This document shows, piece after piece, positions 22,283 to 56,595 of a DNA stretch of 64,000 nt (its first letter is position 1; the number at the start of each line of letters is the position of its first letter). The DNA comes from Eubacteriales bacterium (lineage in GTDB: Bacteria > Bacillota > Clostridia > Oscillospirales > CAG-382). A model generated the notes under the pieces. The model searched no databases and was not told the origin of the DNA. It saw nothing but the letters and a program-made list of their open reading frames with translations. A program made the position numbers and the translations under genes. The stretch is taken from assembly GCA_045542335.1 (NCBI GenBank), contig JAZQKV010000086.1:1478-65477 (forward strand), in the 5' to 3' direction.

Positions 22283-22306
22283 AGTTCTATACACCTTTCA
22301 CAAAAA

Positions 22307-22335
22307 ATTTTATTTCACCATATTGATTTTATCAA
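22307..22335 (-). promoter_or_regulatory. Sigma-A promoter of the isomerase-kinase-epimerase-aldolase operon
   Basis: The minus strand reads TTGATA-17 nt-TAAAAT. It interleaves with the divergent regulator promoter. Confidence 0.45.
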
Positions 22336-22350
22336 ATATTGTGATATAAT
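22323..22350 (+). promoter_or_regulatory. Sigma-A promoter of the PocR/AraC regulator gene
   Basis: TTGATT-16 nt-TGATATAAT. Confidence 0.5.
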
Positions 22351-22405
22351 TATAGTCAATTCTATCTAAAAAATTGTAAATTTGTACGAAACGGTGGATA
22401 AATTT

Positions 22406-23209
22406 ATGAAATTAAAACTGAATATCCAAAAGCTCGAAGAAATCATGAGGGCGTTTTACACGCTCACAGGCATCCGCTTTGTGATTTTTGACAGCGACTA
22501 CAACGAAATACTTGCATATCCGGAGGTGCCGTGTGAGTTTTGTGCAAAGCTACGGTCAAATCCGACACTTCGTGAAAAATGTCGCATGAGCGATATTTGT
22601 GCATTTGAAAAGTGCCGTAAAAGCAAGGAAGTGCTTATTTACAAATGCCATGCAGGTCTTGTGGAAACCTGCACTCCCATAAAAAATGAGGACAAGATTC
22701 TGGGATATGTGATTTTCGGTCAGATTGCAGACACAAAGGACAAGGATGAGCTTAAAAGCATAACAAGCAAATCCGCACCCCAATGCCCCACCGACGGCAT
22801 AAACTACAAGAGCGAGAGCGAAATTCTTGCAGCAGCAAAGCTTCTTGAGATGTGTACGGACTATCTTCTTTTAAAGGAGATAATAGAGGCAGATACCGAA
22901 AAAATCATCACCGACGTAAAGGAGTATATTTCCCTGCATCTCGGGCAGGACATAAAAACAAGCGACCTTTGCACTTTAGCAAACGTCACCCGTACAAAGC
23001 TCTATGAAATCTTTGCCCGTGAATGTGGAATGGGAATTGCACGCTACATAAAAACCGAGCGTCTGAAAAAAGCACGACATCTTCTCAAAACAACCTCGCT
23101 TTCCATAACCGAGATTTCCGATTCAACAGGGTTTGCGGATTACAACTATTTCAGCCGTGTTTTCAAGGACTATTTCGGCGTTTCTCCGTCAAAGTTCAGA
23201 AAAAAATAG
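22406..23209 (+). CDS. AraC-family regulator with an N-terminal PocR sensory domain
   Basis: The PocR-like Cys-rich segment is PCEFCAKLRSNPTLREKCRMSDICAFEKCRKSKEVLIYKCHAGLVETCTPI. The C-terminus is LSITEISDSTGFADYNYFSRVFKDYFGVSPSKFRK. I prefer the ATG at 22406 (RBS GGTGGA 7 nt upstream) over the TTG at 22382. Confidence 0.82.
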   Translation: MKLKLNIQKLEEIMRAFYTLTGIRFVIFDSDYNEILAYPEVPCEFCAKLRSNPTLREKCRMSDICAFEKCRKSKEVLIYKCHAGLVETCTPIKNEDKILGYVIFGQIADTKDKDELKSITSKSAPQCPTDGINYKSESEILAAAKLLEMCTDYLLLKEIIEADTEKIITDVKEYISLHLGQDIKTSDLCTLANVTRTKLYEIFARECGMGIARYIKTERLKKARHLLKTTSLSITEISDSTGFADYNYFSRVFKDYFGVSPSKFRKK

Positions 23210-23246
23210 ATTCTCCTCTTTTCACAATGCCTTTACACAAAAAGCG

Positions 23247-23286
23247 TCGCCGCAGACAAGTCTTTCCTGTCTGCGGCGGTGTTTTT
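23247..23286. terminator. Bidirectional rho-independent terminator (ends the heme operon and the regulator gene)
   Basis: CGCCGCAGACA / TGTCTGCGGCG forms an 11-bp stem followed by GTGTTTTT. A-rich sequence lies on the other side. Confidence 0.85.
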
Positions 23287-23293
23287 AGCTTTT

Positions 23294-24442
23294 TTACTGT
23301 TCTGCCACACTCTTAAGTGCAGATTTTACATGAGAGAGGTCTTCGACTGTAACCGTGCCATCCTCATTTATGTCAAGGCGTTCAATGGTGTTGTCCTCGG
23401 TAAACTCGGAGAAGCCACGCATTACTCTTATAAAGTCGTCAATGTCAACAACTCCGTCGCCGTAAGGCTCGGAATAAGAGCCGGAAATGTCGCCGGGAGA
23501 AAGCGTGATGTCGCCAAGCGAAGCACCTGACGGGGTGACGGTAAATTCAACGGTATATGGCAGATAGCCGTTCTTGAGAATCTCGCCGTAATAGCTTCCG
23601 GGTGCGACTACAATGCTGAACGGAATGCTTCCGACAGCGGTATCCGGCGTTTCAAGCTGTGCGCTTCTCACAAGCTGATTCTTGTCGGAGGAGGTGTAAA
23701 TATTCAGCGTAGCAAGGTTTGAATATCCGCTTTCGGCGTTAACAATCGGCGTGTCTCCGTCGGCACGAATCGTCACAAGATTTCCGGTGATGCTTGCTTC
23801 GTCGGCATCATATGCAAAGGTAAATTCCGAGAGCACCGCACCCGTTTCTCCGTCCGCCGAAAGATAGAACACTCTTGAAGCATTGTCTATCTTTACAGGG
23901 GAAGCAGTGGTCGATGTCGGGAACACACCGGAAAGTGCACTGTCGGTAAGCTCCGCCGTTTCCAGACGCAGGGAGGATGCTGATTTGCTCTTGCCTTCGG
24001 CGACTTTATAGGTAAAACCGCACACGGTAGCCTTTGTGCTGAAATCTGCACCGTCCGCCTCGGTTGAAAGCGAAAGGTTTACGGTTGTAAGTGTGCCGTT
24101 GACAACATATTCAGGTGCGAGAAGGTTAAATCCCATGGCAGGCACAAAGCAAGCCGTCACCTCTGATTGCTCCGATGCACTTATTTCAAGAGCCGTTCCG
24201 TCTGCCGCACAAGGCACTATAACCGTGTTGTCATAGGAAAACACGAACTGTACCGAGCGCAGAGTGTCGGAGGTTACATCAAAATTCAGCGTGCAAATGC
24301 CATCCATTTCTTCTCCGACACTTTCGGTTATGCTGACGTATGCGGTTTTGTCACCCGTATGAGCAACGGCTGTGATAATTCCCACAACAATGGTAAGGGC
24401 AATCAGAACTGCGCTTACTGCAAAAATACTTTTTTTACGCAT
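23294..24442 (-). CDS. Membrane-anchored or secreted protein with cohesin-like beta-sandwich module(s), an X-module and a C-terminal dockerin
   Basis: The N-terminal hydrophobic anchor is IFAVSAVLIALTIVVGIITAV. The cohesin-like segment is ICTLNFDVTSDTLRSVQFVFSYDNTVIVP...GTLTTVNLSLS...CGFTYKVAEGKS. The X-module is GSYYGEILKNGYLPYTVEFTV. The dockerin is GDGVVDIDDFIRVMRGF..DINEDGTVTVEDLSHVKSAL. The RBS GGGGGAG sits 12 nt after the upstream stop. Confidence 0.7.
   Translation of the reverse strand: MRKKSIFAVSAVLIALTIVVGIITAVAHTGDKTAYVSITESVGEEMDGICTLNFDVTSDTLRSVQFVFSYDNTVIVPCAADGTALEISASEQSEVTACFVPAMGFNLLAPEYVVNGTLTTVNLSLSTEADGADFSTKATVCGFTYKVAEGKSKSASSLRLETAELTDSALSGVFPTSTTASPVKIDNASRVFYLSADGETGAVLSEFTFAYDADEASITGNLVTIRADGDTPIVNAESGYSNLATLNIYTSSDKNQLVRSAQLETPDTAVGSIPFSIVVAPGSYYGEILKNGYLPYTVEFTVTPSGASLGDITLSPGDISGSYSEPYGDGVVDIDDFIRVMRGFSEFTEDNTIERLDINEDGTVTVEDLSHVKSALKSVAEQ
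23315..23461 (-). other. Dockerin module (subtype A), C-terminal
   Basis: GDGVVDIDDFIRVMRGFSEFTEDNTIERLDINEDGTVTVEDLSHVKSAL. Confidence 0.75.
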
Positions 24443-24454
24443 TTTAACTCCCCC

Positions 24455-27400
24455 TTACTCCGAAACTGTATCCGACGCTTCACAGCCCATAACTCTTATT
24501 TCGGTAACAGCGGGCCAACGGTCGGTGGTTGTATTGTTGAGCTCTTTGATTTTAATGCTTGTTGTTGTGACAGGCTCATCAAATTCAAGCCACATCATTT
24601 CGCTTGTCTTTTTCATTGCAAGCCAGGCGGTCGTGCCGTCTGAAAGTTCAACAGTGCAGGATGTAAAGTAATCATCATGGTCAAAATCCGCCCGAATCTT
24701 TATTCCCACAGAGCTTACACACACGCTTCTTCCAAAGTCTATGCTTGCATAATCGTCGCTTGCATCGCCCTGATTAAGTCCCCAGCTCATAACGGGGTAG
24801 CCAAGACCTGTTGCGTCGTAATAGTGCAGAAGATTCATTTCAAAGCCATCAATAAGCGCACGGGCACGACAGTAATTTGAGCTGTAACGTGAAGAAACCG
24901 TCGCGTGCGGATAAATACCGGTGGCATCGTCGAGGTCAAAGGGATTGAGCGCAAGGTTACGCACAGAGGAAAGCTCGTCGTTGGTGGGAATTCTTGCGCT
25001 TGCAGTGTTCTCGGTGTAAAGCGTAAAGGCTTCCGTCGGGAAAACCGTTGACGCATACGAGGGAAATGTGTAAGTGAACACACCGTCAGGAACATAGATT
25101 ATGCTTTCGGCAACCTTGGGTGTAAAGGTGAAAGCAAGATATTTATGTCCTTCGGGAAGTGTTACGGTAAAGGTGTCACCCTGAGCATATTTGCGGGGAA
25201 TTGTGATGTACGCAGATTCGCTGTCTGTTGCAGAAGTACTTACGCCGTCTGCTCCGGCAAAGCTTATGGTTATCTCACCGGGCATTTCAAGACCTGCAAG
25301 CTTTTTCTTTGCCTGAGTGTCAAGCATTTCATAGAAATCACGTTTGCTGTCCTTTTCGGTGGCATCCCTCAGGTCATTGTCGCTCCAATTGACATTTTTA
25401 TCATACTTACCATAGGCGGGAACGCCAAGGTCAATCCATGCTCTTATGGTGCGAAGCTCGGCATCGGTAAGGTTATACGGTTCAAGAAGTGTGAAAAGTC
25501 CGGTGCTTGTCTTTGAGCCATACTCATAGGGCTCAAGCATTTCAGGCTTACTCATGGAATATATCCAATTGATATAGCTGTTTTGATAATCTCCGATCCA
25601 TTGAATATTGCTCTTTGGAGTTGAGCCTGTAAGCACGAGATAGGAAAGCGGGAAGGACTTCTTCATTCTTGGCGCAGGCATGAGCTTGCCGCCGAGATAG
25701 ATTTTTGAAGGCTCGGACACAATACTGCTTTGCTCGCCGCCAACTTTTATGTCGTATGCATACAGTGCAAAATCTGCGCCTATTTCGCCGCTCGCATTGG
25801 GTACTTCCATTGCAAGGATATTCTGACCCTGCACAAAATACTTTGATATTGCAGTGCCGAGGTCAAATATGTCATACCCTGTATTATAGCCGTTCTTTTC
25901 CCATATAAGGTTTCCGTTGAGATAAAGCTTTGGGTCTTCATCATAAAGTGCATACAGCTTGATGCCGCAATTTGAATACTCCGCAAGATTCTCAATATTA
26001 AAGGCTGTCCTTGCATAAAGTGTATTTCCGTCGCCTTTGTATTCCGTATTATAGCCCACGGCTTTCATGTTTCCAAACGGTGCGTCGTTAAGTGTCCACG
26101 AAGAATCATCAAAAGTGTTTGATGTCCATGAGGAATCGGGAGCTTCTGCGGTGTAAACATTGGTCCAGGTAGCTCTCGGATCAACCAGATATTTTTCGTC
26201 AAATGCCTTAAAATGGGCATAAAGACCAAGGTCAAAATATCCGCCGTAAGCATTTGTAGGGTTGGTAAGTCTGACGGAAATCACGTTATCGCCCACAACA
26301 AGGGCATCCTTGAAGGCTTCGTCAAGGTAAACATCTCTGTAACCCCAACCGGTATAATAGCCTCCGCTTCCGCCGGCGGTATTGTTAAGGAACTTTGTTC
26401 CGTTGACGTAAAATTCGGGAGCTTGTGCATAAAAGGCATTGAGGCTGAAGTCTGCCTTTGCAAGCATATCCGCAGTAACGGTGAAATGCTTTCTTACCCA
26501 AAGATAGCCTGCAACCTGAAGTTCGCCCCATGTCGTTGCGTAGGTTCTCTTTGTGCCGTTACCAAAGGGAGCATTGCCGGTTGACCAGGACGAAGCATCA
26601 AAGTCTGCGGCGTGAACAGCCGTGCCGAGGGTATCACTTGAAGCGACGTTATAGCTCCAGCTTGAACCCTTGTCGATAAGTGTTGTGGTATAGCTTTCGG
26701 TAATGAGGTTTCTTTCCACAATACCGCTTGCAAGCAATGCCATATCATAGCCTGCCTCGCCGTTTGCCTCATTTGGAGCAGCCGTCGCAAGGACATTTGT
26801 ACCCTCGCGAAGATACTTTGTGCAGGTTGAGCCAAGGTCAATCGTTGTGTAACCTGTTGTATAGCCGGAGGTAGAATAGATGAGGTTGCCGTTAAGGTAA
26901 ATGCTCGGGTCTTGGTCGTAAAGCAGATTCATTTTAAGGGTCACGCCCTCATATTCTGAAAGGTCTTCAATTTCAAAGCTCTGACGGACATACATGGTGT
27001 TTCCACCGGCAACTACAAAATTTGAGTTTGTTCCCACGCATTTTACGTTTCCGATGGGACCTTCACCCGATGTCCATGAACTGTCATCAAAGTCCACGGC
27101 GGTCCAGTTTTCGGGAGCACCCGTCGCATTGTCAATCACGCTGTATTTAAGCTCACTTCTTGCTTCAACAAGGTACTTTTCGTCGTACTTGCGGAAATCT
27201 GCGTAAAGTCCAAGGTCAAACGCACCGCCATTTGCATTTGCGTTTGTTGGGTTGGTAAGTCTGACGGCGATTGTGTTTGTGCCAACCTTTAAGGCACTCT
27301 TGAAATCTTCGTCAAGGTAAACGTCACGGTAGCCCCAGCTTGTGAACCAGCCGCCGCTTCCGGAGGTGGTATTATTAAGGAACTTTTTGCCGTTGACGTA

Positions 27401-30124
27401 AAATTCGGGTGCTTGTGCGTAATACGCATTAAGTCTGAAATCCGCTTTGTCGAGTGTGGTCTGATCGGGAATGGTAAAGGTCTTTCTCACCCAAAGGTAT
27501 CCCGAGGCGTTCTTTTCATACCATACTGTATTGTGTGTGACCGTACCGTTTCCGAAAGGTGCAGCCCCCGTGAGCCAAGTGGAGGTATCGTAATCCTCTG
27601 CATACCACTCTGCACCGTCAAGCGAATTTGAGGTATTCATGAAGTATGTCCAGTCCGCACCATGATCTATAAGAGTATCGGTGTAAGCTTCGAGGATTGC
27701 GTCGTCGGGGATGACTATGTCGCCCTCGGGAAGAACAACAGGCTTATTGTCGGAATACATTTTGAATGAGAACACAGGTGCTTGCAAGTACGGTGCTTGA
27801 ACCTTTACAGCAATGGTGTTCTCACCCATGCGGAGCATTGAAATCATATCGTCCGTAAAGAAATTCCGTACGGTTTCCGAAGCACCGCTTCCGGAAAGGG
27901 CAAGCTCTCCGTTGAGATATACTGTATAGTTGCCCGTTGAGATAACCTCAAACAAAGGCGTGTACTCACTTATCATGTAGTTATCGGCGGTAAACTTACG
28001 TCTCAAATAAAGCTCACCGCTTTCCCAGACGGAGTTGACTTCGCAAAGTCCGTTTGCGTGTGCACCAAAAGGAGCATAAAGTCCATGCCAAGCGGAGGAA
28101 TCAAAGTCCTCGGCGTACCATGTTCCGCTTTGCGCTTCAAAGGAAACGTCCCATTTATCGTCCGCAAGTATCGCAACGGGACGGGCATCAGAGTCAAGTC
28201 CTGTCATAGAAGAGGCTGAAACGGCAACCATCGCCTGGGAGATATTCGAATAATCGGTGGTTGTTTTTTCGTTAAATATCTTCTGAACCTCATCCTCGTA
28301 GTCGAAGCCGATCGGCTCGTCTGTATACGGATCATAGTCCGCATAAATGTCATCCTCCTGCCATGCTTCACGGGTTATTTTCTGCACTCCCTTTTTGAGT
28401 GCAAGTGTGGGGGTTGCGTTTGCAGGGGGAACATTGTCCTTGTTCTCGTGGCAGCCAACGCACGAAAAGCTCTCGCCGGGCATAAGTGTTGTCCAGCTTC
28501 GCATACTTGCTATTACACAGCCCTCATCGTCAAGCACCTGGAAATAAAGCGGTGTATCCGAGGGAGCTTCAAACAGGCATGAGCCGTCCTCCTCTATGGG
28601 TACGCTTCCAAGCACCGCCTTTACGTCCCATGCGCCATAGCCCGTCGAAATCGGAGAGAACGGGTCTGCACCGGGCTGAACGGTAGCACCTATTGCGTAG
28701 TTTCTGAATTTGAGTGCAACGACACGGAGTTCTTTTGCCGTTCCTCTTTCAACGCCCGTCATTCCCTCGCCTGCGTAAACGTTTCCGATATAATATGTTC
28801 CGCTTTTCTTTGCATAGTTTACCATAGAGCTTCTGAGGAACATTTCACGGGTCTTTACAGGGACAACCTGTGCCGGAGAATAGTTGTTTTCAAAGTACGA
28901 AATGGGTACAAGGTTTTCCGTGGAGCTTCCGTCGCTAAGATAAAGGTTAAACTGTGCATCTGACGACGGAATTTTCCACACATCCCAGTTGTCGGGATCT
29001 TCGATAATGCCGTCAAGGTCGGCAGCAATAAAGAAGGTTTCGCTGTCAATGGGATAAGGATATCGGTAAATTGCGCCGACCTGACCATATTGGTCAACGT
29101 TGTCTGTCTTTTCGGAATACTCGTCAGGGAAAACAAAATTCACAGCATCCTTGCTGTTTCTTTCAATGTTGACATCAACCGTAACAAGCTTTCCGAGCTG
29201 AGTTGTGTGGTGACCCGTGGCAATCGCCATATACTTTCCGCTTTCGCCGGGGATTTCACGGGCGTGAATCAGAGAGGTGGGGAAGTTTGAATTGTTGCCG
29301 TAAAGCTCGGTCTGATTGGTGCCGTCGGGCATCATCTGGAAAAGGCTCTGGATATAGAGCTGTGTTCTGTCGTTATAGTCCCAACGGGTGTAAATAATTC
29401 TGCCGTCGCCTGTGAGCTTTGGGGTAGTGGTATGAACCTGATCATAACCGATTCTTCTGATGTTTGAGCCGTCGGGATTCATTATGAAAAGATTTGATAC
29501 AGGCACTTTCCAGCAGTCAACCGTCTGGATAATCCTGCTTGAAGAGAACATGATATTTCCGTCGGGAAGATATATAGGCTCGAAATCAGAAACACCGTCG
29601 CCGAAAGTAAGCTGTTTTACACTTCTGTCGGCAAGGGTCATTTCGTAAATTTTGAAATCCTCATATTTGTTTGCTCTCTGTGAATATATAACTGTTTTTC
29701 CGTCAGCCGAAACATCCGGGTCACGGACAACGCCGCTTGGCAGGTCAACGAGTATTTCCTCGGTTACAGTGATAGAACTTTCAGAGGCCTTTTCAACAGA
29801 GAGAAGTACCATTCTTGATGGTGTGCCCTTTATGCTCGCTTCACCTTTTTCGGGAAGTGATGTACCGTAAATGATTTCCTCGGCAAGATCCTCCGTATAG
29901 GAAAAATGCGAGCCGCCCATGCGCTTGATTTTGGTGAGAATATATGTACTTGAATGTTCAAGCGCACGGTCAACAACCGCCATTTGATCAGCGGTGAGGT
30001 TTTCAACTGTTATTGTGGTAACATCACCAACAGCGGCTCCAACCTTTGCGGTATCGCTGTAAATCACCGTCATGGGAAGAACAAGTACAAGGGTGAGCAC
30101 GAGTGAAAGTATTCTGTTTTTCAT
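24455..30124 (-). CDS. 1889-aa secreted protein. It has a TolB/PD40-type beta-propeller, an HzsA-middle-domain-like region with one CxxCH heme c site, five galactose-binding-like (CBM-type) modules, and a C-terminal discoidin (F5/8 type C)-like domain.
   Basis: The signal peptide is MKNRILSLVLTLVLVLPMTVIYS. PD40-like repeats include VSADGKTVIYSQR..IYLPDGNIMFSSSR. The heme region is DGSCLFEAPSDTPLYFQVLDDEGCVIASMRSWTTLMPGESFSCVGCHE. There are five modules with the D(D/S)SxW..(A/G)P(F/I)G motif. The C-terminus is ALIDGFEMN...VTEIRVMG. The RBS AGGGAGGA sits 15 nt after the upstream stop. Confidence 0.75.
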   Translation of the reverse strand: MKNRILSLVLTLVLVLPMTVIYSDTAKVGAAVGDVTTITVENLTADQMAVVDRALEHSSTYILTKIKRMGGSHFSYTEDLAEEIIYGTSLPEKGEASIKGTPSRMVLLSVEKASESSITVTEEILVDLPSGVVRDPDVSADGKTVIYSQRANKYEDFKIYEMTLADRSVKQLTFGDGVSDFEPIYLPDGNIMFSSSRIIQTVDCWKVPVSNLFIMNPDGSNIRRIGYDQVHTTTPKLTGDGRIIYTRWDYNDRTQLYIQSLFQMMPDGTNQTELYGNNSNFPTSLIHAREIPGESGKYMAIATGHHTTQLGKLVTVDVNIERNSKDAVNFVFPDEYSEKTDNVDQYGQVGAIYRYPYPIDSETFFIAADLDGIIEDPDNWDVWKIPSSDAQFNLYLSDGSSTENLVPISYFENNYSPAQVVPVKTREMFLRSSMVNYAKKSGTYYIGNVYAGEGMTGVERGTAKELRVVALKFRNYAIGATVQPGADPFSPISTGYGAWDVKAVLGSVPIEEDGSCLFEAPSDTPLYFQVLDDEGCVIASMRSWTTLMPGESFSCVGCHENKDNVPPANATPTLALKKGVQKITREAWQEDDIYADYDPYTDEPIGFDYEDEVQKIFNEKTTTDYSNISQAMVAVSASSMTGLDSDARPVAILADDKWDVSFEAQSGTWYAEDFDSSAWHGLYAPFGAHANGLCEVNSVWESGELYLRRKFTADNYMISEYTPLFEVISTGNYTVYLNGELALSGSGASETVRNFFTDDMISMLRMGENTIAVKVQAPYLQAPVFSFKMYSDNKPVVLPEGDIVIPDDAILEAYTDTLIDHGADWTYFMNTSNSLDGAEWYAEDYDTSTWLTGAAPFGNGTVTHNTVWYEKNASGYLWVRKTFTIPDQTTLDKADFRLNAYYAQAPEFYVNGKKFLNNTTSGSGGWFTSWGYRDVYLDEDFKSALKVGTNTIAVRLTNPTNANANGGAFDLGLYADFRKYDEKYLVEARSELKYSVIDNATGAPENWTAVDFDDSSWTSGEGPIGNVKCVGTNSNFVVAGGNTMYVRQSFEIEDLSEYEGVTLKMNLLYDQDPSIYLNGNLIYSTSGYTTGYTTIDLGSTCTKYLREGTNVLATAAPNEANGEAGYDMALLASGIVERNLITESYTTTLIDKGSSWSYNVASSDTLGTAVHAADFDASSWSTGNAPFGNGTKRTYATTWGELQVAGYLWVRKHFTVTADMLAKADFSLNAFYAQAPEFYVNGTKFLNNTAGGSGGYYTGWGYRDVYLDEAFKDALVVGDNVISVRLTNPTNAYGGYFDLGLYAHFKAFDEKYLVDPRATWTNVYTAEAPDSSWTSNTFDDSSWTLNDAPFGNMKAVGYNTEYKGDGNTLYARTAFNIENLAEYSNCGIKLYALYDEDPKLYLNGNLIWEKNGYNTGYDIFDLGTAISKYFVQGQNILAMEVPNASGEIGADFALYAYDIKVGGEQSSIVSEPSKIYLGGKLMPAPRMKKSFPLSYLVLTGSTPKSNIQWIGDYQNSYINWIYSMSKPEMLEPYEYGSKTSTGLFTLLEPYNLTDAELRTIRAWIDLGVPAYGKYDKNVNWSDNDLRDATEKDSKRDFYEMLDTQAKKKLAGLEMPGEITISFAGADGVSTSATDSESAYITIPRKYAQGDTFTVTLPEGHKYLAFTFTPKVAESIIYVPDGVFTYTFPSYASTVFPTEAFTLYTENTASARIPTNDELSSVRNLALNPFDLDDATGIYPHATVSSRYSSNYCRARALIDGFEMNLLHYYDATGLGYPVMSWGLNQGDASDDYASIDFGRSVCVSSVGIKIRADFDHDDYFTSCTVELSDGTTAWLAMKKTSEMMWLEFDEPVTTTSIKIKELNNTTTDRWPAVTEIRVMGCEASDTVSE
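28448..28462 (-). other. CxxCH heme c attachment motif (CVGCH)
   Basis: The plus strand reads gtggcagccaacgca, which on the minus strand is TGC GTT GGC TGC CAC. Confidence 0.7.
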
Positions 30125-30139
30125 TGTTTATTCCTCCCT

Positions 30140-32788
30140 TCAGTTGTTTACAAGCACAAGGTCGGTTGCATACGCCCTGCCGCTTCTTGTTTCGGTAATT
30201 GTAAAGGTAAGAGTTCCGCCTTCAGCAAAATCTTCGGGTATTTCAAAGGACGAGGGGAACTGCACCGTATAAAGTGCGCCGTATTTCATTGCCGGAAGCT
30301 CAAAGCTCTTGCTTTCAAGAGAGTTTCCGTCGGCATCTGCAAGGGTAATTGTGACGGTCGCCTCCCTTGCATATTTATCTTGCTTTCTTACGGTGAAATA
30401 ATCGGGTACGGCACCGGGAGCAATCTTTGAGTAGAGAGTTGCTCCATCGGAGGCAGTGGCAAAAATCTGCTCGATACCGTAGGCTTCATTCTCCGCACCT
30501 ATTGAAAGTACATATTCCGTAAGGTCGTCGATTTCGCTTTGGGAAAGGTTCAGACCCTCGGTATCATGCACGACACTTTCACGGGCTGTCGCAAACTTTC
30601 CGTTAAAGCGGTACGGTGCGCTTCTCCAGACCTCAACAAGAGTCGATGTATCAAAGGGTCTGTATTCCCAGCCGTCGGTTTCGGGGTCAATAATTCCGTT
30701 ATCGTGAAGCTTCATATCCGTGTAAAGGGGCGCAGGATGGCAGGTGATACACCCCGCCTCATCAAACAGCTGCTTTCCGTTTTGTGCCGATGACGTGAGT
30801 GTTCCGTCACGGTTAAGATAAGGAGATGCAACCGGAGAAAGGCTCTTTAAATATTCGTCGATTGCCGCCATGCCTTCCTCGGGAATAACGTTGAATTGAA
30901 TGTATTTCATACCTGCTCTGACAGCAGTTTCGGCGTTTGCTCTGATACCCGTCACCATTACGGGCGGTGTTCTGTGGGAATAAAGCATACTCTTTGCGCT
31001 CTTGTGTGTTCCGATGCCGTCGTTGAGGTTGTCCCAGTTAAGTCCGTCTACGCGTGCGTCGGGATGACAACTGTTACAGGACTGCCAGCTCTGATAGCAA
31101 AGGGTTGCGTCACTCCAGAGGATATGTCCTTGGCGCACCACATCATTTTCGGGCTGTGCACCAAGAGAAACGGTTTCTACCTCCATGGTATCAAGTGAAA
31201 GTGCGGCAATGTCGCCTGTAAAATACTGTGCAAAATACGCTGTATTTCCATCGGCGGCAACCGCAACGCCCCTCGGACCATTGCCCGAAAGAGCAATTCT
31301 CTGTCTTGCACCATCAAGGAAATTAAGGCTGTTTGCGGTGCTCGAAAGAGTACCTGTGCTTTCCTCGGAACTCAATTTATCGTTGAGTGTGGGAATGTCA
31401 ATTACCATCGCCTCATGTACACCGGAAAGAGCAACGACCAGCTTGTCGCCGGAAATTTCAATACCCCATGGATTTGCCGCGCCAAGGTCAGTCTTGTCAA
31501 GGAGTACGGTGGCATAAGGCGTGTCGGTAGTGCAGTCGAAAATCGTTACTGCGTTGGTGTTTATCCAACCTCTGTCAAGCTGGGTCGTGGGATAGGCGTA
31601 TCTTCCGAGCACATGAGTTATGTAAAGCCTTCCGTTTCCGTCAGCGACAACATCCTTTACACCCGATGCGCCGTTGATAATAGGCTCGGTCTTTATAACG
31701 GTGTTTGTTTCAAGGTCAATGACCGAAACCTTTGCGGAAACGACGTCCTCCGTTGCCGCATCATCTGTAAGGTGATGCACTGCATAAAGCTTACCGTCTG
31801 ATACTGCAAGGGCTATCGGCTCACGGATGACGTCAATGTGCGTAGTTATACTGTAATCGGAGGTGTCAATGACCGAAATTGTGTTTGAAAACCTATTGGC
31901 AACATAAAGCTTACCGTCTGAAAGCGCCATGTCCGTGGGGGTGTGACCGACTTCAAGAGTTTCAATGACCGCAAAGTCGTCTGCGTCAAGCACGCTTACA
32001 ACACCCGAAAGACCTCCTTCGGCAACATAGACCATTCCGTCTTCTGCCATTACGCCGTTTACGTCATCCGAAGCAATGTAAGTCTTTGCGATTTCACCGT
32101 CGGAAAGCCTGAGCTTATAGACCGCTCCCCTTGTTTCGTCGCCTACCGCCGCATAATTCCCGTCAATAACGGCAAGAGATGCGGGAGAAATGTATTCAGA
32201 TTCATCTATATAACGCTCTCCCTCAAAAATTGCGTCGGTTAAAGTCTTGCCCTTGCCCGAAAGCAGTATAGCCAGGTCCTCTGTGTCCACCTTACCGTCC
32301 GAGGTAAGGTCGGAAAGGGGATTTTCAAGATTTGCTTTCTTTTTATTGTAGTCCGCATTAAGGAGTGCAAGATCCTCCCCGTCAATTCTTCCGTCGGTGT
32401 TTATGTCACCACCGAAGGCACGCAGATCAACAGCCGCAAGCTCCTCGCCCGACTGCACCTTTACGGAGTTTATTCTGTAAGGCAAAAATCCGTCTGCCTC
32501 TATAACCAGGGTATAATAGCCTTCAACGGGAATATCCGAAAGCTTAAAGCTTTTTCCCTTGGTGGTGGTCCTGCTTACCGTAGCCATTGTTTCGGCGTCA
32601 AGAAGCGAAACCGTGTATACCTTTTCAACGGTATTTACATCAAGCGAGCCGTTTACGGAATATCCGTTTGAAAACAGATCAACAATTCCGGAAAGTCCCA
32701 CATCGGAAACGGCAAACACCGCAATTCCGAGAACAATCACCGTCGCTACAGCGCAAATTGCCACTGTCAGTTTTTTCTTACCGAGCAT
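30140..32788 (-). CDS. Secreted or anchored protein with an X-module, a canonical N-terminal dockerin, a YVTN-type beta-propeller and a C-terminal di-heme cytochrome c peroxidase/MauG-like domain
   Basis: The anchor or signal is LTVAICAVATVIVLGIAVFAV. The X-module is GYYTLVIEADGFLPYRINSV. The dockerin is DINTDGRIDGEDLALL..DLTSDGKVDTEDLAILL. YVTN-like blades include DGKLYVANRFSNTISVID and DGKLYAVHH. The CCP-like part is GHILWSDATLCYQSWQSCNSCHPD, GKQLFDEAGCITCHPAPLYTD and TLVEVWRSAPYRFNG. I prefer the ATG at 32788 (GGGAGG 8 nt upstream) over the TTG at 32794. Confidence 0.78.
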   Translation of the reverse strand: MLGKKKLTVAICAVATVIVLGIAVFAVSDVGLSGIVDLFSNGYSVNGSLDVNTVEKVYTVSLLDAETMATVSRTTTKGKSFKLSDIPVEGYYTLVIEADGFLPYRINSVKVQSGEELAAVDLRAFGGDINTDGRIDGEDLALLNADYNKKKANLENPLSDLTSDGKVDTEDLAILLSGKGKTLTDAIFEGERYIDESEYISPASLAVIDGNYAAVGDETRGAVYKLRLSDGEIAKTYIASDDVNGVMAEDGMVYVAEGGLSGVVSVLDADDFAVIETLEVGHTPTDMALSDGKLYVANRFSNTISVIDTSDYSITTHIDVIREPIALAVSDGKLYAVHHLTDDAATEDVVSAKVSVIDLETNTVIKTEPIINGASGVKDVVADGNGRLYITHVLGRYAYPTTQLDRGWINTNAVTIFDCTTDTPYATVLLDKTDLGAANPWGIEISGDKLVVALSGVHEAMVIDIPTLNDKLSSEESTGTLSSTANSLNFLDGARQRIALSGNGPRGVAVAADGNTAYFAQYFTGDIAALSLDTMEVETVSLGAQPENDVVRQGHILWSDATLCYQSWQSCNSCHPDARVDGLNWDNLNDGIGTHKSAKSMLYSHRTPPVMVTGIRANAETAVRAGMKYIQFNVIPEEGMAAIDEYLKSLSPVASPYLNRDGTLTSSAQNGKQLFDEAGCITCHPAPLYTDMKLHDNGIIDPETDGWEYRPFDTSTLVEVWRSAPYRFNGKFATARESVVHDTEGLNLSQSEIDDLTEYVLSIGAENEAYGIEQIFATASDGATLYSKIAPGAVPDYFTVRKQDKYAREATVTITLADADGNSLESKSFELPAMKYGALYTVQFPSSFEIPEDFAEGGTLTFTITETRSGRAYATDLVLVNN
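30737..30751 (-). other. CxxCH heme c attachment motif 2 (CITCH) of the CCP/MauG-like domain
   Basis: The plus strand reads atggcaggtgataca, which on the minus strand is TGT ATC ACC TGC CAT. Confidence 0.75.
31064..31078 (-). other. CxxCH heme c attachment motif 1 (CNSCH) of the CCP/MauG-like domain
   Basis: The plus strand reads atgacaactgttaca, which on the minus strand is TGT AAC AGT TGT CAT. Confidence 0.75.
32255..32413 (-). other. Dockerin module (subtype B: both Ca-binding loops canonical), N-terminal position
   Basis: GGDINTDGRIDGEDLALLNADYNKKKANLENPLSDLTSDGKVDTEDLAILLSG. Confidence 0.75.
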
Positions 32789-32814
32789 TTTCAATGCCTC
32801 CCATGATAGAATTA

Positions 32815-33582
32815 TTAAGAGTATGTGTGAAGTGAATCCGATGGAATCATGTCCACAAAAAGAAGTGTAAATACAAGTGCAAAAAATCCGATTATGACGA
32901 AAGCCTTCGCAAATCGCCTAAATCGCCCGACCCTTCGCATATGCAGATAACCGCTGTAAAAAAGCAAAGTCAGAAGTGAAAAGCACTCCTTGACGTCCCA
33001 CGTCCAGAACTCGCCCCACACTTCATTTGCCCACGTTGCGCCGCAAAGCATACCCGAAAGCATAAAGGGCAACGCCGTTTTCACGAGCAGACCGCAGGCG
33101 TTTTCACATTCCCCTGCCCTATCAGTAAAAATCATCCCCCACACACAGCACACAAAGGACACGGCGCAAAGAGTATAGGAAATCATGTATAAAAAAACAT
33201 GGGGTACAAAAAACGGTGAATCAAGTGCCGGCGGAAAGTGCCAGGCACCGCTGTCAGACATAAAGCCAACGCCGACAAGAATTATGCCCGAAAGTGCCGG
33301 GAAAAATTTCAATATGAACATTTGCTTTTTGACCATACACATATATATGGCTGAAAATGTCATCGTCACCGCAAGGAAAGTAAGCACCTGATACATACTC
33401 ACAAACGGCACATATCCGTTTATAACGGCGTTTCTCAAAACAAGAAACAGATTTATGCACATACCGCCTGCGTAAAGCACATTCATAAGCTTTGGAAGCT
33501 TTCCTGTTGCTATAAGAAGCGCACTCACAATATAAAGCGCCGCACCGCAGAAGGTTATTGCCATAAGCAGCTTTACGGTCAT
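32815..33582 (-). CDS. ccsA: Cytochrome c biogenesis protein CcsA/ResC (System II heme-handling subunit)
   Basis: The Trp-rich WWD motif WANEVWGEFWTWDVKE is at nt 32986-33033. Conserved His contexts are PPALDSPFFVPHV and YSGYLHMR. The protein is polytopic. The ATG overlaps the ccsB stop (ATGA). Confidence 0.85.
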   Translation of the reverse strand: MTVKLLMAITFCGAALYIVSALLIATGKLPKLMNVLYAGGMCINLFLVLRNAVINGYVPFVSMYQVLTFLAVTMTFSAIYMCMVKKQMFILKFFPALSGIILVGVGFMSDSGAWHFPPALDSPFFVPHVFLYMISYTLCAVSFVCCVWGMIFTDRAGECENACGLLVKTALPFMLSGMLCGATWANEVWGEFWTWDVKECFSLLTLLFYSGYLHMRRVGRFRRFAKAFVIIGFFALVFTLLFVDMIPSDSLHTYS

Positions 33583-34325
33583 GCCTTATCACCGCCTTCC
33601 GAAGTATCTTGCTCCGACGGTGCATTACCGTCCTTTTTCTTTTTTCTTTCCGGTGCAAACGCCGTGACAAAAGCTCCAGCCACCATGCAGATTATTCCGA
33701 CAAGGCTTATAAACTCCCCGGGGTCACGCTTTATAAGCAGATTCACCTGCAAGCTCTGCCCCATTCCGTAAAAGCCCATGAGATATATTTTATATCCGTT
33801 TTTCCTTACAGGCTTGTTAACAGAAATATCAAGGCTCTCGGCAAGGCGGCTTCTCTTTTGAGTAAATGTAAGCACTCCGTTGTACTCCTTATCCGAGCCG
33901 TCGGGATAAGTGACAATTTCGAAGGAATCAAGCGACATTTCGAAGGGAAGACTTACACTTTCATAGTTTCCGTCGGACTTTTCGTTTTGTATTTCCGAAT
34001 ACACCAAATCGGGATCGGGCGGCATAGAAACGTTGTATTTTGCACCCGTAAAGTTGTAAATCGTAATTCCCGCTAAGAAAAACACCATTCCGAAATGAAG
34101 TGCAAGAACGCCGATTGACCGGAGTGTAGGTCTTGACGTGTACGCAAGTACAAGCACAGCACCGGTCGCCGACAACACAAGCAACAATGCCGATATAACA
34201 AAAGTCACAGGCGTATCTGCAGAAAATGCAATTCTGTGTGCCACATATACCGTACAAAGCACAGCTTCCACGGCGCACAATATTCCAGACAAACTTAAAA
34301 TCTTCTTTTTTGCGCCACTTGACAT
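33579..34325 (-). CDS. ccsB: Cytochrome c biogenesis protein CcsB/ResB, short form
   Basis: The TM His context is VLALHFGMVFFLAG. The ResB-like C-terminal motif is ISVNKPVRKNGYKIYLMGF, followed by a last TM helix. I chose the ATG at 34325 (MSSGAKKK..). The ORF-track ATG at 34361 lies inside a palindrome and has no RBS. The AAGGAGG for 34325 is 14 nt upstream, so the start is not certain. Confidence 0.75.
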   Translation of the reverse strand: MSSGAKKKILSLSGILCAVEAVLCTVYVAHRIAFSADTPVTFVISALLLVLSATGAVLVLAYTSRPTLRSIGVLALHFGMVFFLAGITIYNFTGAKYNVSMPPDPDLVYSEIQNEKSDGNYESVSLPFEMSLDSFEIVTYPDGSDKEYNGVLTFTQKRSRLAESLDISVNKPVRKNGYKIYLMGFYGMGQSLQVNLLIKRDPGEFISLVGIICMVAGAFVTAFAPERKKKKDGNAPSEQDTSEGGDKA

Positions 34326-34349
34326 ATGGTTTCTCGTTCCCTCCTTATT

Positions 34350-34373
34350 CACGTTAACCATTCGGTTAACGTG
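34350..34373. promoter_or_regulatory. Perfect 10-bp inverted repeat in the ccsB leader (candidate operator or RNA hairpin)
   Basis: CACGTTAACC-ATTC-GGTTAACGTG. It lies between the predicted TSS and the RBS of ccsB. Confidence 0.5.
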
Positions 34374-34442
34374 TCAATATATCGGCGTACCTGTAAACAT
34401 TTTGGTTAATTTTACCAAAGCACCCAATCGATTCACAAGTAA

Positions 34443-34471
34443 AATATATCATATTTTCACAAATTTGTCAA
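34443..34471 (-). promoter_or_regulatory. Sigma-A promoter of the ccsB-ccsA-heme protein operon
   Basis: The minus strand reads TTGACA-17 nt-TGATATATT (extended -10). The leader is about 110 nt. Confidence 0.6.
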
Positions 34472-34501
34472 GTACTTTTTTGGATTTTTTCCAAAATCCT
34501 C

Positions 34502-34530
34502 TTGACAACTTCATTTTGTTGTGTTATCAT
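34502..34530 (+). promoter_or_regulatory. Sigma-A promoter of the ArsR-like regulator / GH51 unit
   Basis: TTGACA-17 nt-TGTTATCAT. It lies 30 bp from the divergent ccsB promoter. Confidence 0.6.
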
Positions 34531-34564
34531 ATAGGCAAACGAAATTAACCTTTTGGAGAACACT

Positions 34565-35476
34565 ATGAAGCATTTTTCTCTGTCAGACTCACTTCCCGTT
34601 TTCAAAGCTCTTGCCTGCCAGACAAGGCTCGACATATTGCGCATCATAAGCTCACGCCCGTGTACACAGAGGGACATCGCATCTTTGCTCGGTATAAGCC
34701 CTGCAATTGTGTCGGAGCATATAAAACAGCTGTGCGATGCGGGGCTTGTAAAGTTCGAGCCAATCGGCAAAGAACGCAAAAATATGTGCTTTGTCGCGGA
34801 AAGCAAATTCTTATTCACTATTGCGGGAAATTCGGGCACAAATGCAGAATCTTTTTCTTTCAAAAATAGCATTCCTGTCGGAATGTTCTCGGCACACAAG
34901 GTCAGTCCGACCTGCGGAATGGTTGGAAAACTCGATCAGCTTGTTGAAAACGACAACCCCGAAGAATTTCTGTCACCGCTTCGTGCTCAGGCTCAGCTTT
35001 TGTGGTTTGCAAAGGGCTTTGTTGAATACGAAATCCCCGTCAGAATCTCAAACCGCAGTCTTAAAAAAGTATCCTTCACCGCAGAGTTAAGCTCCGAAGC
35101 ACCTTGCTATAATGAACACTGGCAATCCGAAATTCACTTTTATCTGTGTGGCACTCACCTTGGCTCATGGCTATGCCCCGGTAACTTTGGTGAGCGTCAC
35201 GGGAATCTCACTCCGTCTTTCTGGCGCACAGGACTTGCAAGTCAATATGGAATACTCAAAACCGTGACGATTGATGATACAGGCTGTTATATTGACAGCG
35301 AAAAGATTTCCGATGTGACAATTGACATGATTGATATTTCAAGCGGAAGGTTTTCGCTTCGCTTTTCCTGCGACGAGGACTCAGCTGTCCCCGGAGGTAT
35401 TACACTTTTTGGCAAGGAATTTGGTGATCATCCGTACGACATTGAGTTTACGCAGATGTACAATCTGAAAAATTAG
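34565..35476 (+). CDS. ArsR-type winged-HTH regulator with a C-terminal domain of about 200 aa and unknown function
   Basis: The wHTH is VFKALACQTRLDILRIISSRPCTQRDIASLLGISPAIVSEHIKQLCDAGLV. I prefer the ATG at 34565 (GGAG 6 nt upstream) over the TTG at 34553. Confidence 0.75.
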   Translation: MKHFSLSDSLPVFKALACQTRLDILRIISSRPCTQRDIASLLGISPAIVSEHIKQLCDAGLVKFEPIGKERKNMCFVAESKFLFTIAGNSGTNAESFSFKNSIPVGMFSAHKVSPTCGMVGKLDQLVENDNPEEFLSPLRAQAQLLWFAKGFVEYEIPVRISNRSLKKVSFTAELSSEAPCYNEHWQSEIHFYLCGTHLGSWLCPGNFGERHGNLTPSFWRTGLASQYGILKTVTIDDTGCYIDSEKISDVTIDMIDISSGRFSLRFSCDEDSAVPGGITLFGKEFGDHPYDIEFTQMYNLKN

Positions 35477-35546
35477 TAAAACACTGCAAGCCTATGGACA
35501 GTTTGTCTGCGTGCAAAAAGTATTGTTAAATTTATGGAGGGATAAT

Positions 35547-39508: not shown

Positions 39509-39537
39509 TTGACAAAAGGCTTAATGTGTGTTACAAT
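39509..39537 (+). promoter_or_regulatory. Sigma-A promoter of the BNR-propeller gene
   Basis: TTGACA-17 nt-TGTTACAAT. Confidence 0.6.
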
Positions 39538-39572
39538 GTCAAAAAGTGAATTATATCCGAGAGGTGAAACAA

Positions 39573-56493: not shown

Positions 56494-56595
56494 GTGATTT
56501 CTTCCTTTCTTTAACGTGACGTTGCACGAAGTATGAATGATAAAGCACCTGACAGCATCATTGCACTGATGCTTATGATGTTCCATCTACCTTTT

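Follow-up and report, generated by a model that had tools for sequence, protein, structure and literature searches.

A hydrazine synthase-like pair of c-type haem proteins in gut and rumen Clostridia: a candidate surface-tethered enzyme encoded beside its own haem-attachment genes

This study concerns a stretch of 64,000 nucleotides (nt) from an Eubacteriales bacterium (GenBank assembly GCA_045542335.1, contig JAZQKV010000086.1, positions 1,478 to 65,477 of the forward strand), which is called the window below. On its minus strand, where all features described here are located unless a plus sign is given, lie two adjacent genes, designated A (24455-30124) and B (30140-32788), whose products resemble the alpha subunit (HzsA) and the fused beta and gamma subunits (HzsB and HzsC) of the hydrazine synthase (HZS) of anammox bacteria. 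Upstream of B are a ccsA-like and a resB-like gene for cytochrome c biogenesis, and this cassette is conserved in at least 51 genomes of gut and rumen Clostridia. We consider it somewhat probable that the cassette specifies a self-contained c-type haem enzyme which is extracytoplasmic and belongs to the architectural class of HZS. In it, A and B would form a complex that acts on a small substrate and is tethered to glycans or to a scaffold.

Both open reading frames were found as given in a preliminary description of the window, which had read 30140-32788 as a propeller joined to a di-haem chain (two CxxCH motifs) and had recognized the HzsA middle-domain signature in 24455-30124. The 1889-residue product of A, which starts at an ATG, begins with a signal peptide-like stretch (residues 1-31; 30032-30124) that was modelled by AlphaFold2 (AF2) as a helix at residues 2-21 followed by a disordered stretch. 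This is followed by an N-terminal HzsA-like beta-propeller of the TolB/Tricorn_N type (residues 32-460; 28745-30031), assigned from an NCBIfam TolB match, from PF26549 Tricorn_N in relatives and from its position within the Foldseek match given below, and by the HZS_alpha middle domain (residues 461-560; 28445-28744), for which Pfam HZS_alpha gave E = 2.5e-28 and 98.9 bits against a gathering score of 26.6. The peptide quoted in the preliminary description corresponds to residues 513-560. When the PDB was searched with A using phmmer, HzsA (5c2v_A) was the sole match. A profile of 80 A-family members aligned to HzsA chain positions 452-666 (E = 7.4e-25), through both HzsA haem motifs. The AF2 model of residues 1-640 (predicted local distance difference test, pLDDT, 82; predicted template-modelling score, pTM, 0.85) placed 5c2v_A at the top in Foldseek (E = 9e-26, template-modelling score (TM) 0.60, 632 aligned columns, about 17 % identity), and the next match, TolB, was some 13 orders of magnitude behind (about 1e-12, TM 0.34, propeller only). 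Taken together, the Foldseek, profile and PDB matches indicate that the resemblance of A to HzsA is specific and spans the propeller and the middle domain.

The haem motif of A, CVGCH (residues 555-559; 28448-28462), was aligned to the alpha-I motif CSGCH of HzsA, and its residues C555, G557, C558 and H559 were invariant in the 80 sequences. It is the only CxxCH in the A protein of the window. In nearly every A relative, Clostridial or not, a second CxxCH follows 52-67 residues downstream of the first. This second motif is homologous to that of the bis-His haem alpha-II of HzsA: EIQPILDxxCxxCH aligned with DIQPILDAKCAMCH in the profile alignment, and relatives read DESCxxCH where HzsA reads DAKCAMCH. 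In the window the site is occupied by FNEKTTTDY (residues 617-625; 28250-28276), a degenerate remnant of an alpha-II-type CxxCH; the same positions read NEKTTTDYSN in the A protein of the window and DERLLADYSN in the relative L081 (about 70 % identity). The preliminary description of A had to be corrected on this point, as one CxxCH is present and the second is degenerate. The lineage of the window has lost the alpha-II-type haem, so that three haems are expected per A-B pair against four in nearly all relatives, whose A and B proteins carry 2 + 2 CxxCH motifs as HZS does. Such a loss fits with a published account in which alpha-II of HZS is given no function and lies beyond electron-transfer range (PMC12607021). 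A variant of the CxxxxCH type (CTSEGCH) was seen at the second haem site of the relative L007. Further towards the C-terminus, residues 1471-1580 (25385-25714; FPLSYLVLTGS...WIDLGVPAYG) represent the remainder of the C-terminal cytochrome-like domain of the family; they align to that part of the family consensus which follows the second CxxCH and are parted from the haem-motif end by an insertion of modules. With regard to the zinc site of HZS (alpha-His587 and alpha-Cys303), the propeller of the A family contains an invariant Cys204, which may or may not correspond to Cys303.

For B, the ATG at 32788, with GGGAGG 8 nt upstream, was preferred as start codon over the TTG at 32794. The resulting protein of 882 residues consists of an HzsB-like propeller fused to an HzsC-like di-haem part, preceded by an N-terminal extension that begins with a hydrophobic putative signal peptide or membrane anchor (residues 1-29, MLGKKKLTVAICAVATVIVLGIAVFAV; 32702-32788). 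The propeller (residues 190-540; 31169-32221) is of the YVTN type and homologous to HzsB, as it matched 5c2v_B over chain positions 24-348 of 352. The domain that follows (residues 545-775; 30464-31156) belongs to the di-haem CCP/MauG superfamily, named after cytochrome c peroxidase (CCP), with HzsC as its nearest member. With the single sequence of B, the PDB search gave 2.7e-15 for HzsB, 7e-14 for HzsC and 5e-4 for the best CCP; with a profile of 43 B-family sequences these values became 7e-23 (84 bits), 2.8e-25 (92 bits) and 9.5e-16 (60 bits), respectively, and MauG reached about 19 bits. The top NCBIfam model for B was the HZS beta-gamma fusion (102.7 bits, cutoff 1250), and the match to Pfam CCP_MauG, 17.4 bits, remained below the gathering score of 25.6. 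Haem motif 1, CNSCH (residues 571-575; 31064-31078), was aligned to the gamma-I motif of HzsC and haem motif 2, CITCH (residues 680-684; 30737-30751), to the gamma-II motif. The parts list of HzsA plus fused HzsBC that had been proposed for the two genes is in this way borne out specifically at the level of sequence, profile and fold.

Two elements of B deserve attention. A loop of the propeller (residues 396-412, RYAYPTTQLDRGWINTN; 31553-31603) is among its best-conserved segments and was aligned to the HzsB segment WLPVCEAENGQVFTNN, which we take to be the tunnel loop of Dietl et al. 2015. Its residues R396, Y397, P400, T401, D405, W408 and N412 were invariant in the B-family alignment A3, and the pattern RYxxPTxxxDxxWxxxN was found in 43 of 51 loci. 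HzsB itself is a seven-bladed propeller whose loop extends into the tunnel, with a conserved Glu that binds Mg; the acidic residue of the B loop is Asp, invariant and shifted in position, and may or may not correspond to this Glu. The same HzsB segment has also been described as the tunnel loop in PMC12758564. The other element is a lone cysteine, Cys564 (31097-31099), 7 residues before haem motif 1 (CYQxWQSCxSCH), which is present in 46 of 51 loci and nearly invariant in A3, while HzsC has Ser there. Cys564 may provide a third haem link or act as an axial or redox ligand. HzsC Cys165, which lies in a segment deleted from B, is not its homologue. The C-terminal domain of B (residues 776-882; 30143-30463) gave no Pfam match and is conserved in 26 related loci.

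Despite this likeness the A-B pair is, as far as can be judged from sequence, not a hydrazine synthase, given the missing residues, the scores far under the equivalog cutoffs and the genomic context. The NCBIfam equivalog models gave 42.2 for alpha (cutoff 800), 78.7 for beta (cutoff 560), 55.9 for gamma (cutoff 625) and, as said, 102.7 for the fusion. The position of alpha-Tyr591, the proximal ligand of haem alpha-I, is taken in A by Asp563 (CSGCHYGSY in HzsA, CVGCHEDKN in the family, CVGCHENKD in the window), a loss that has also been reported for other non-anammox homologues (PMC12758564). Both in B and in the B-family profile, the segment SLDRVCGRDPG of HzsC is replaced by a 12-residue gap; it contains gamma-Cys165, the third covalent link of haem gamma-I, and gamma-Asp168, which is near the iron (PMC12758564, PMC12607021) and is the proposed proton donor (PMC12607021). 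The gamma-His144 position is Val in B (PPFRHEGF in HzsC versus PPVMVTGI) and variable in the family consensus PPVMxTG; in CCP, in MauG and in clades I-III of the published non-anammox homologues it is Trp (PMC12758564). Genes for hdh, hao or nitrite reductase were absent from the 64-kb window and from the 126 flanking genes of related loci. The preliminary description had rightly refrained from claiming hydrazine synthesis.

More than 1000 relatives of A (residues 1-640) were found at 39-53 % identity, some of them named 'HzsA-related protein' by NCBI, and at least 571 species-representative genomes encode one. Among the matches listed, the closest, about 57 loci, were from uncultured Clostridia. 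Their hosts include Acutalibacteraceae, Oscillospiraceae, Ruminococcus, Lachnospiraceae, Christensenella and Catabacter, and they were sampled from the gut or rumen of goat, sheep, deer, buffalo, rabbit, chicken and human. Six of these contigs begin within about 600 nt of A, which leaves 51 informative loci. B was directly upstream of A in all 51, with a median of 15 nt between the stop codon of B and the start of A (at most 25 nt in 46). In 43 loci B was immediately preceded by ccsA, and in 41 the resB-like gene came before ccsA; in a few loci with over 7 kb upstream (L043, L046) the ccsA and resB-like genes were not adjacent. The three proteins A, B and CcsA are inherited together: their pairwise distances were congruent over 40 loci (r = 0.79-0.85; Mantel 0/999). 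The surroundings of the cassette vary from locus to locus, with the housekeeping genes FtsH/TilS/DnaB in L082 and L083 and mixed orientation of the flanks. AraC regulators were the sole recurrent flank family in Clostridia (15 of 126 flanking genes), and no carbohydrate-active enzyme (CAZyme) family recurred beside the cassette among these 126 genes. The combination of a constant gene order with differing surroundings marks this as a portable cassette.

Outside Clostridia, the nearest relatives of A, at about 41 % identity, belong to Planctomycetota, Phycisphaerae, Victivallales, Sumerlaeota and Verrucomicrobia. No B-like open reading frame was detected within 10 kb of A in 22 of 23 such loci, a search with the family hidden Markov model (HMM) included; on one truncated contig (L070) a weak B-like match was seen. 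This implies that the A subfamily is not always found next to B. The conservation of the two genes as neighbours, on which the idea of a two-subunit enzyme had been made to depend, held for every informative Clostridial locus, and this check was passed; 22 of the 23 non-Clostridial loci did not show it. Beside stand-alone A-type genes in L055, L067, L069 and a few other loci of the Planctomycetes-Verrucomicrobia-Chlamydiae (PVC) group, genes for a Na/Pi cotransporter with PhoU, a PhoR-like kinase and PhoB-like regulators recur. This Pho-regulon signal in Phycisphaerae flanks is weak and phylogenetically narrow, coming from closely related loci and few independent events; together with the phosphatases that carry modules of the kind found in A (see below) it may point to a phosphate link. 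Two A-type genes, L021 and L036, were present on different contigs of the Eubacteriales metagenome-assembled genome SRP315200_co1_690, which may mean that certain genomes have a duplicated cassette.

In the window, five minus-strand genes lie head to tail in the order resB-like, ccsA-like, B, A and a gene for a dockerin protein of 382 residues (23294-24442). The resB-like gene (33579-34361; 260 residues; Pfam ResB, E = 1.7e-22) and the ccsA-like gene (32815-33582; 255 residues; Pfam Cytochrom_C_asm, E = 1.2e-23; CcsA/ResC-like haem handling) overlap by 4 nt, and a WWD-type motif, VWGEFWTWD, was read in the ccsA-like protein. With a ResB-type protein, a CcsA-type protein and a WWD motif, the pair has the predicted composition of system II (CcsBA/ResBC) of cytochrome c biogenesis. 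A and the 382-residue protein gene follow their upstream neighbours after 15 and 12 nt, respectively, each with a Shine-Dalgarno site of its own. Upstream of the resB-like gene a promoter-like site of the sigma-70 type (34443-34471; TTGACA, 17 nt, TATATT, extended TG) was found that, on consensus match only, agrees at 11 of 12 positions and is the best minus-strand site in 22300-34700. Past the last gene lies the strongest terminator-like hairpin of the region (23248-23278; 13-bp stem, 9 GC pairs, T-tract). From these gaps and signals the five genes look like a single transcription unit of about 11.2 kb.

The ResB-like proteins of the cassette are short, about 240-260 residues in the window and its orthologues (41 loci), and in the window the best Pfam match is confined to positions 145-270 of the ResB model, which has 486. 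The canonical members of this family have roughly twice the length. The short form may represent a minimal CcsB dedicated to two client cytochromes.

The architecture of A is extended by five tandem modules of about 165 residues each (residues 652-1470; 25715-28171), namely m1 (27659-28171), m2 (27158-27657), m3 (26669-27157), m4 (26162-26668) and m5 (25715-26161). The insertion starts right after the second haem site and splits the C-terminal cytochrome-like domain. Modules m2 and m4 are 65 % identical and m3 and m5 45 %, as if a unit of two modules had been duplicated. A similar module was noted at the second haem site of the Victivallales protein L073. The modules of the window gave no significant match in the PDB or in Pfam, including any carbohydrate-binding module (CBM) family, the best being GH2_N at E = 0.02, and a word-seeded protein search with m2 and m3 yielded 3 marginal matches. 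An exhaustive HMMER search with a module profile recovered 9427 representative proteins (E <= 1e-3), usually with 2-8 copies each. Among 53 sampled module proteins, Pfam reported PF14683 (CBM-like, PL4 domain III) in 17, BetaGal_ABD2 in 7 and GH2_N in 5; in P0284 and P0355, where coordinates were checked, these matches overlap the module, the matches of relatives being sub-threshold or weak. By these overlaps the modules are placed as galactose-binding-domain (GBD)-like jelly-rolls. An AF2 model of one module from a 5-sequence alignment (pLDDT 51) was too poor for a fold search and was not used. The five CBM-like modules announced in the preliminary description were thus found in number and, via relatives, in GBD-like character, with no significant match to a CBM or other Pfam family; 'CBM-like' seems fair as a label of fold.

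Near its C-terminus A carries the discoidin (F5/8 type C) domain that had been proposed, of a type shared with DUF7402 (residues 1741-1876; 24497-24904), at 26.4-28.3 bits, which straddles the Pfam gathering score of 28.2. F5_F8_type_C was recorded in 27 and DUF7402 in 26 of 52 Clostridial A proteins, in the consensus of which the C-terminal region is conserved as well. GBD modules are located behind the second haem site in most Clostridial loci, and PVC relatives too carry GBD modules and a C-terminal discoidin/DUF7402 domain. Such decoration is not peculiar to this organism, being the rule in Clostridial A proteins. In this respect only the module count (five), the missing second haem site and the dockerin carried by B are specific to the lineage. 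Glycan targeting by modules and discoidin would follow from their fold class only.

A dockerin is present, as had been stated, and scores above its Pfam cutoff, but it sits on B rather than on the module-bearing A, and a second dockerin protein gene follows 12 nt past A. In B, residues 126-178 (32255-32413) enclose a type I dockerin (residues 128-176; Dockerin_1, 25.7 bits, gathering score 22.9) with two Ca-binding DxxxDGxxDxxD repeats, DINTDGRIDGEDL and DLTSDGKVDTEDL. It is preceded by a CarboxypepD_reg-like beta-sandwich (residues 59-117; 32438-32614), a weak match of 23.5 bits against a cutoff of 32.3 that was also recorded in the close B relatives P0135 and P0136. Among 120 B homologues listed, only P0135, P0136, P0213 and P0226 have a dockerin. 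The combination of CarboxypepD_reg-like domain and dockerin on B is specific to one lineage (the window, P0135, P0136 and L081; relatives of about 70-73 % identity), and to the same lineage only belong the five modules in A, the lost second haem site and the 382-residue dockerin protein gene. Dockerins occur sporadically on Clostridial A proteins (4 of 52).

System II attaches haem outside the membrane, and the N-termini of A, B and the 382-residue protein were read as hydrophobic. On the reading that A and B constitute one enzyme, the resB-like and ccsA-like maturase would serve both apocytochromes, which would then come together in the manner of the alpha and beta-gamma parts of HZS, with the conserved loop of the B propeller at their interface. 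Two buried haem sites are predicted, haem 1 of B of the CCP/HzsC type and the haem of A with canonical CxxCH histidine ligation, and these may be linked through the region of the conserved B loop. A small diffusible substrate would be converted at the cell surface, most likely a peroxide or a species of the nitrogen oxide/hydroxylamine type rather than a polymer to be cleaved. The GBD modules and discoidin of A and the dockerin of B would anchor the enzyme to glycan surfaces or to a cohesin scaffold. Of the earlier interpretation, homology and synteny are supported; the complex with its inter-subunit channel, for which synteny, co-inheritance and the conserved loop speak indirectly, is inferred, as are glycan targeting and chemistry.

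Several observations weigh against this reading. The flank census revealed no electron donor or partner redox protein, either in the cassette or recurring beside it, and genes of the nitrogen cycle or of oxidative stress are not recurrent neighbours. The hosts seem to live in the gut as fermentative anaerobes. With the gap at gamma-Cys165/gamma-Asp168 and Val at the gamma-His144 position, B seems to be without the residues that define either of the known chemistries, that of HZS or that of CCP/MauG, and the assignment of peroxide or an N-oxide as substrate is a guess from family resemblance. The module family is found as well on purple-acid-type phosphatases (9 of 53) and on PKD and cadherin proteins. 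Finally, the non-Clostridial loci in which no B-like gene was detected raise the thought that A-type proteins may work without B.

This last point leads to an alternative in which A and B are independent haem enzymes that are clustered by a shared need for CcsBA, A acting alone as in PVC bacteria and B being a propeller-fused, peroxidase-type protector of the surface. The hosts perhaps have no other cytochromes c, in which case all haem-c clients would be expected near ccsBA, and the place of B in the CCP/MauG superfamily agrees with a peroxidase role. We nevertheless regard this as unlikely, as B is nearer to HzsB and HzsC, the counterparts of which are obligate alpha partners in HZS, than to any free-standing CCP, is always immediately upstream of A at the median gap of 15 nt, and has among its most conserved parts the loop aligned to the HzsB tunnel loop; moreover, co-localization of alpha-like and beta-gamma-like genes recurs in several other phyla (PMC12758564). 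The superfamily and the strict adjacency could also be accommodated if B were a MauG-type maturation enzyme that modifies A, for example by producing a cross-linked or hydroxylated cofactor, and were not a catalytic subunit. MauG-like genes do typically adjoin the gene of their protein substrate. MauG, however, was the weakest match of the B-family profile (about 19 bits versus 92 for HzsC), the inter-haem Trp on which hole hopping in MauG depends is replaced by Val in B, and MauG systems have no counterpart of the large HzsB-like propeller, which together make this explanation very improbable.

A different view of the decoration would be that the pair oxidizes polymers, as a haem analogue of a lytic polysaccharide monooxygenase (LPMO) or of RoxA that attacks plant or host glycans or phenolics with peroxide or O2. 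Five GBD-type modules and a discoidin domain on A, a dockerin on B, a window rich in glycan-degrading genes (GH51, GH2/AXE1/discoidin, BNR sialidase-like), AraC-type regulators as the most frequent neighbours (15 of 126) and faint RoxA-like_Cyt-c matches in some B homologues are in line with this view. Against it stand the lack of a recurrent CAZyme family beside the cassette, which is found in housekeeping contexts too, the occurrence of the module family on many extracellular proteins that are not CAZymes, and the anoxic guts and rumens that these bacteria inhabit. Both catalytic haems of HZS are reportedly buried behind tunnels (Dietl et al. 2015), and such buried, tunnel-linked sites suit small substrates. 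We therefore consider polymer oxidation a poor prospect, if less so than maturation of A by B. That the pair is a genuine HZS with a cryptic anammox-type chemistry in Clostridia is barely conceivable: the domain architecture and the anammox-like order of beta-gamma before alpha are all that is shared, and opposed to these are the missed equivalog cutoffs, the absence of the defining residues, the identity of about 17 % to HzsA, the lost alpha-II site and the absence of hdh, hao or nir nearby.

If the pair is compared with the HZS of Kuenenia stuttgartiensis (5C2V), the same blocks are recognized, an alpha-type propeller with a CxxCH middle domain in A and, in B, a YVTN propeller of the beta type that has the conserved inserted loop and a CCP-like di-haem domain of the gamma type. 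Scalindua shows the fusion of beta with gamma in its HzsBC, as B does; the anammox gene order, beta-gamma before alpha, is the same here; and the wider A/B family has the 2 + 2 haem motifs of HZS, the second A motif being homologous to alpha-II. Unlike anammox HZS, the window pair has no Tyr591-type proximal ligand, Cys165 link, Asp168 or His144, its alpha-II site is lost, and five GBD modules, a discoidin domain and a dockerin are added. The hosts differ as well, Gram-positive gut and rumen Clostridia here and anammoxosome-bearing Planctomycetota for HZS.

HZS-like pairs outside anammox bacteria have already been published. In 2023, hzsA-like genes beside fused hzsBC-like genes were described in Phycisphaerae UBA1845, and a broader enzyme family with alternative substrates was suggested (PMC10732223). 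Hagglund et al. (Dec 2025) reported co-localized alpha and beta-gamma homologues without the catalytic HZS residues in four clades (I-IV) from Planctomycetota, Desulfobacterota, Acidobacteriota and Verrucomicrobiota/Opitutus (PMC12758564). The Clostridial pair resembles these in that an alpha-like gene and a fused beta-gamma-like gene are adjacent and the HZS residues are not kept, and both papers frame a broader family. Clades I-III have the alpha gene in first place, an accompanying FG-GAP/CRTAC1 gene and Trp at the His144 position, and clade I has extra N-terminal multihaem domains (PMC12758564). By these descriptions the window is set apart from clades I-III, with B before A, Val at the His144 position and no extra haems; an FG-GAP family was absent from the flank census of related loci (126 genes). 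The dedicated ccsBA genes and the decoration with GBD modules, discoidin and dockerin further distinguish the Clostridial pair from the published non-anammox ones. A few raw BLAST matches of Oscillospirales proteins, at 21 % identity, are contained in the supplement of PMC12758564. Neither PMC10732223 nor PMC12758564 discusses Clostridia, gut habitats, linked ccsBA, GBD/discoidin decoration or dockerins. Literature searches for Clostridial HZS-like genes gave nothing beyond the rows of that one supplement table, and those on cytochromes c in Oscillospirales or on cellulosomes gave nothing relevant. The Clostridial cassette with its surface-tethering architecture is accordingly not published. 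PMC9012536 was considered as a precedent for dockerin-tagged cytochromes and withdrawn, since the dockerins of anaerobic methanotrophic archaea (ANME) are on transporter-binding and S-layer proteins; giant ANME cytochromes, with sugar-binding motifs, are described there separately from dockerins.

Within the databases A is a member of the NCBI 'HzsA-related protein' family (Tricorn_N plus HZS_alpha, with or without F5_F8_type_C/DUF7402; 39-45 % identity over 640 residues), which is abundant in Planctomycetota, Phycisphaerae, Lentisphaerota, Sumerlaeota and some Bacteroides. It shares with this family the motifs YTRWDYND, GHH and MRSW..L.PGE.FSC.GCHE and the C-terminal discoidin-type domain. 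Most 'HzsA-related' proteins have 800-1070 residues, keep the second CxxCH and have no B-like neighbour (22 of 23 sampled loci), whereas the A protein of the window has 1889 residues, five modules and a degenerate second site. The C-terminal half of B is like di-haem CCP/MauG proteins in its two CxxCH motifs, its two-domain layout and a segment of the ...PY..DG type. It differs from them in remaining under the Pfam cutoff, in lacking the inter-haem Trp, in its fusion to a propeller and in the family-specific Cys 7 residues before haem 1.

To our knowledge, HZS was long thought to have no relatives, and Gram-positive fermentative Clostridia of gut and rumen are not usually credited with cytochromes c. 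The present finding, which would surprise workers on anammox as well as on gut Firmicutes, extends the HZS class to such bacteria. The four-gene Clostridial cassette is compact, portable and expressible, and as the pair travels with its own haem-attachment genes it could be moved to a heterologous host. The loss of the alpha-II-type haem in the lineage of the window constitutes a natural experiment on what that haem does in HZS. Should the complex and its chemistry be established, fibre-degrading gut bacteria would be credited with a new extracellular redox activity, and a second, experimentally simpler entry would be gained to the two-site, tunnel-linked architecture of HZS and its evolution. 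A more far-reaching proposal, which we put forward as speculation with a small chance of being correct, is that many uncultured Clostridia of gut and rumen (Oscillospirales, Christensenellales and relatives) have no c-type cytochrome system other than resB-ccsA-B-A, and that this cassette encodes a new glycan-tethered HZS-class surface enzyme with two active sites. It would convert N-oxides, hydroxylamine or peroxide at the interface with fibre or mucus, or perform a peroxide-driven attack on glycans or phenolics, with Cys564 as a new haem link or ligand.

The protein encoded last in the transcription unit has a C-terminal dockerin (Dockerin_1, 26.4 bits, gathering score 22.9) and an N-terminal hydrophobic segment. 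It is kept in L081 at 58 % identity, and no homologue was found in the other 80 related loci. Its remainder outside the dockerin gave nothing in Pfam or PDB searches; the middle part looked like a cohesin by eye, which these searches did not support, and no claim is made. If the protein were an adaptor, the dockerin of B could be bridged to a scaffold.

Divergent from the unit and upstream of it lie genes for an ArsR-type regulator and a GH51 arabinofuranosidase, and downstream are an AraC/PocR regulator and sugar-catabolism genes. The former regulator, an ArsR/MarR-type helix-turn-helix protein of 307 residues (34553-35476, +), diverges from the cassette promoter region, and its promoter-like site (34502-34530) stands back-to-back with that of the cassette. 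The arrangement is kept in L081 (1542-2465), and the protein is a candidate local regulator in the lineage of the window. In other Clostridia an AraC-type neighbour is commoner than an ArsR/MarR-type one. No cohesin was seen in those open reading frames of the window that were scanned for domains. The gene content suggests that the host is a Gram-positive glycan degrader which uses cohesin-dockerin attachment. A third dockerin protein of 1434 residues (234-4538, +) contains Listeria-Bacteroides repeats and a metallophosphoesterase domain, and the window further encodes the GH51 protein (35511-37055, +), a BNR sialidase-like protein (39528-40667, +), a GH2/AXE1/double discoidin protein of 2139 residues (40739-47158) and an S-layer homology (SLH) protein of 1222 residues (52918-56586).

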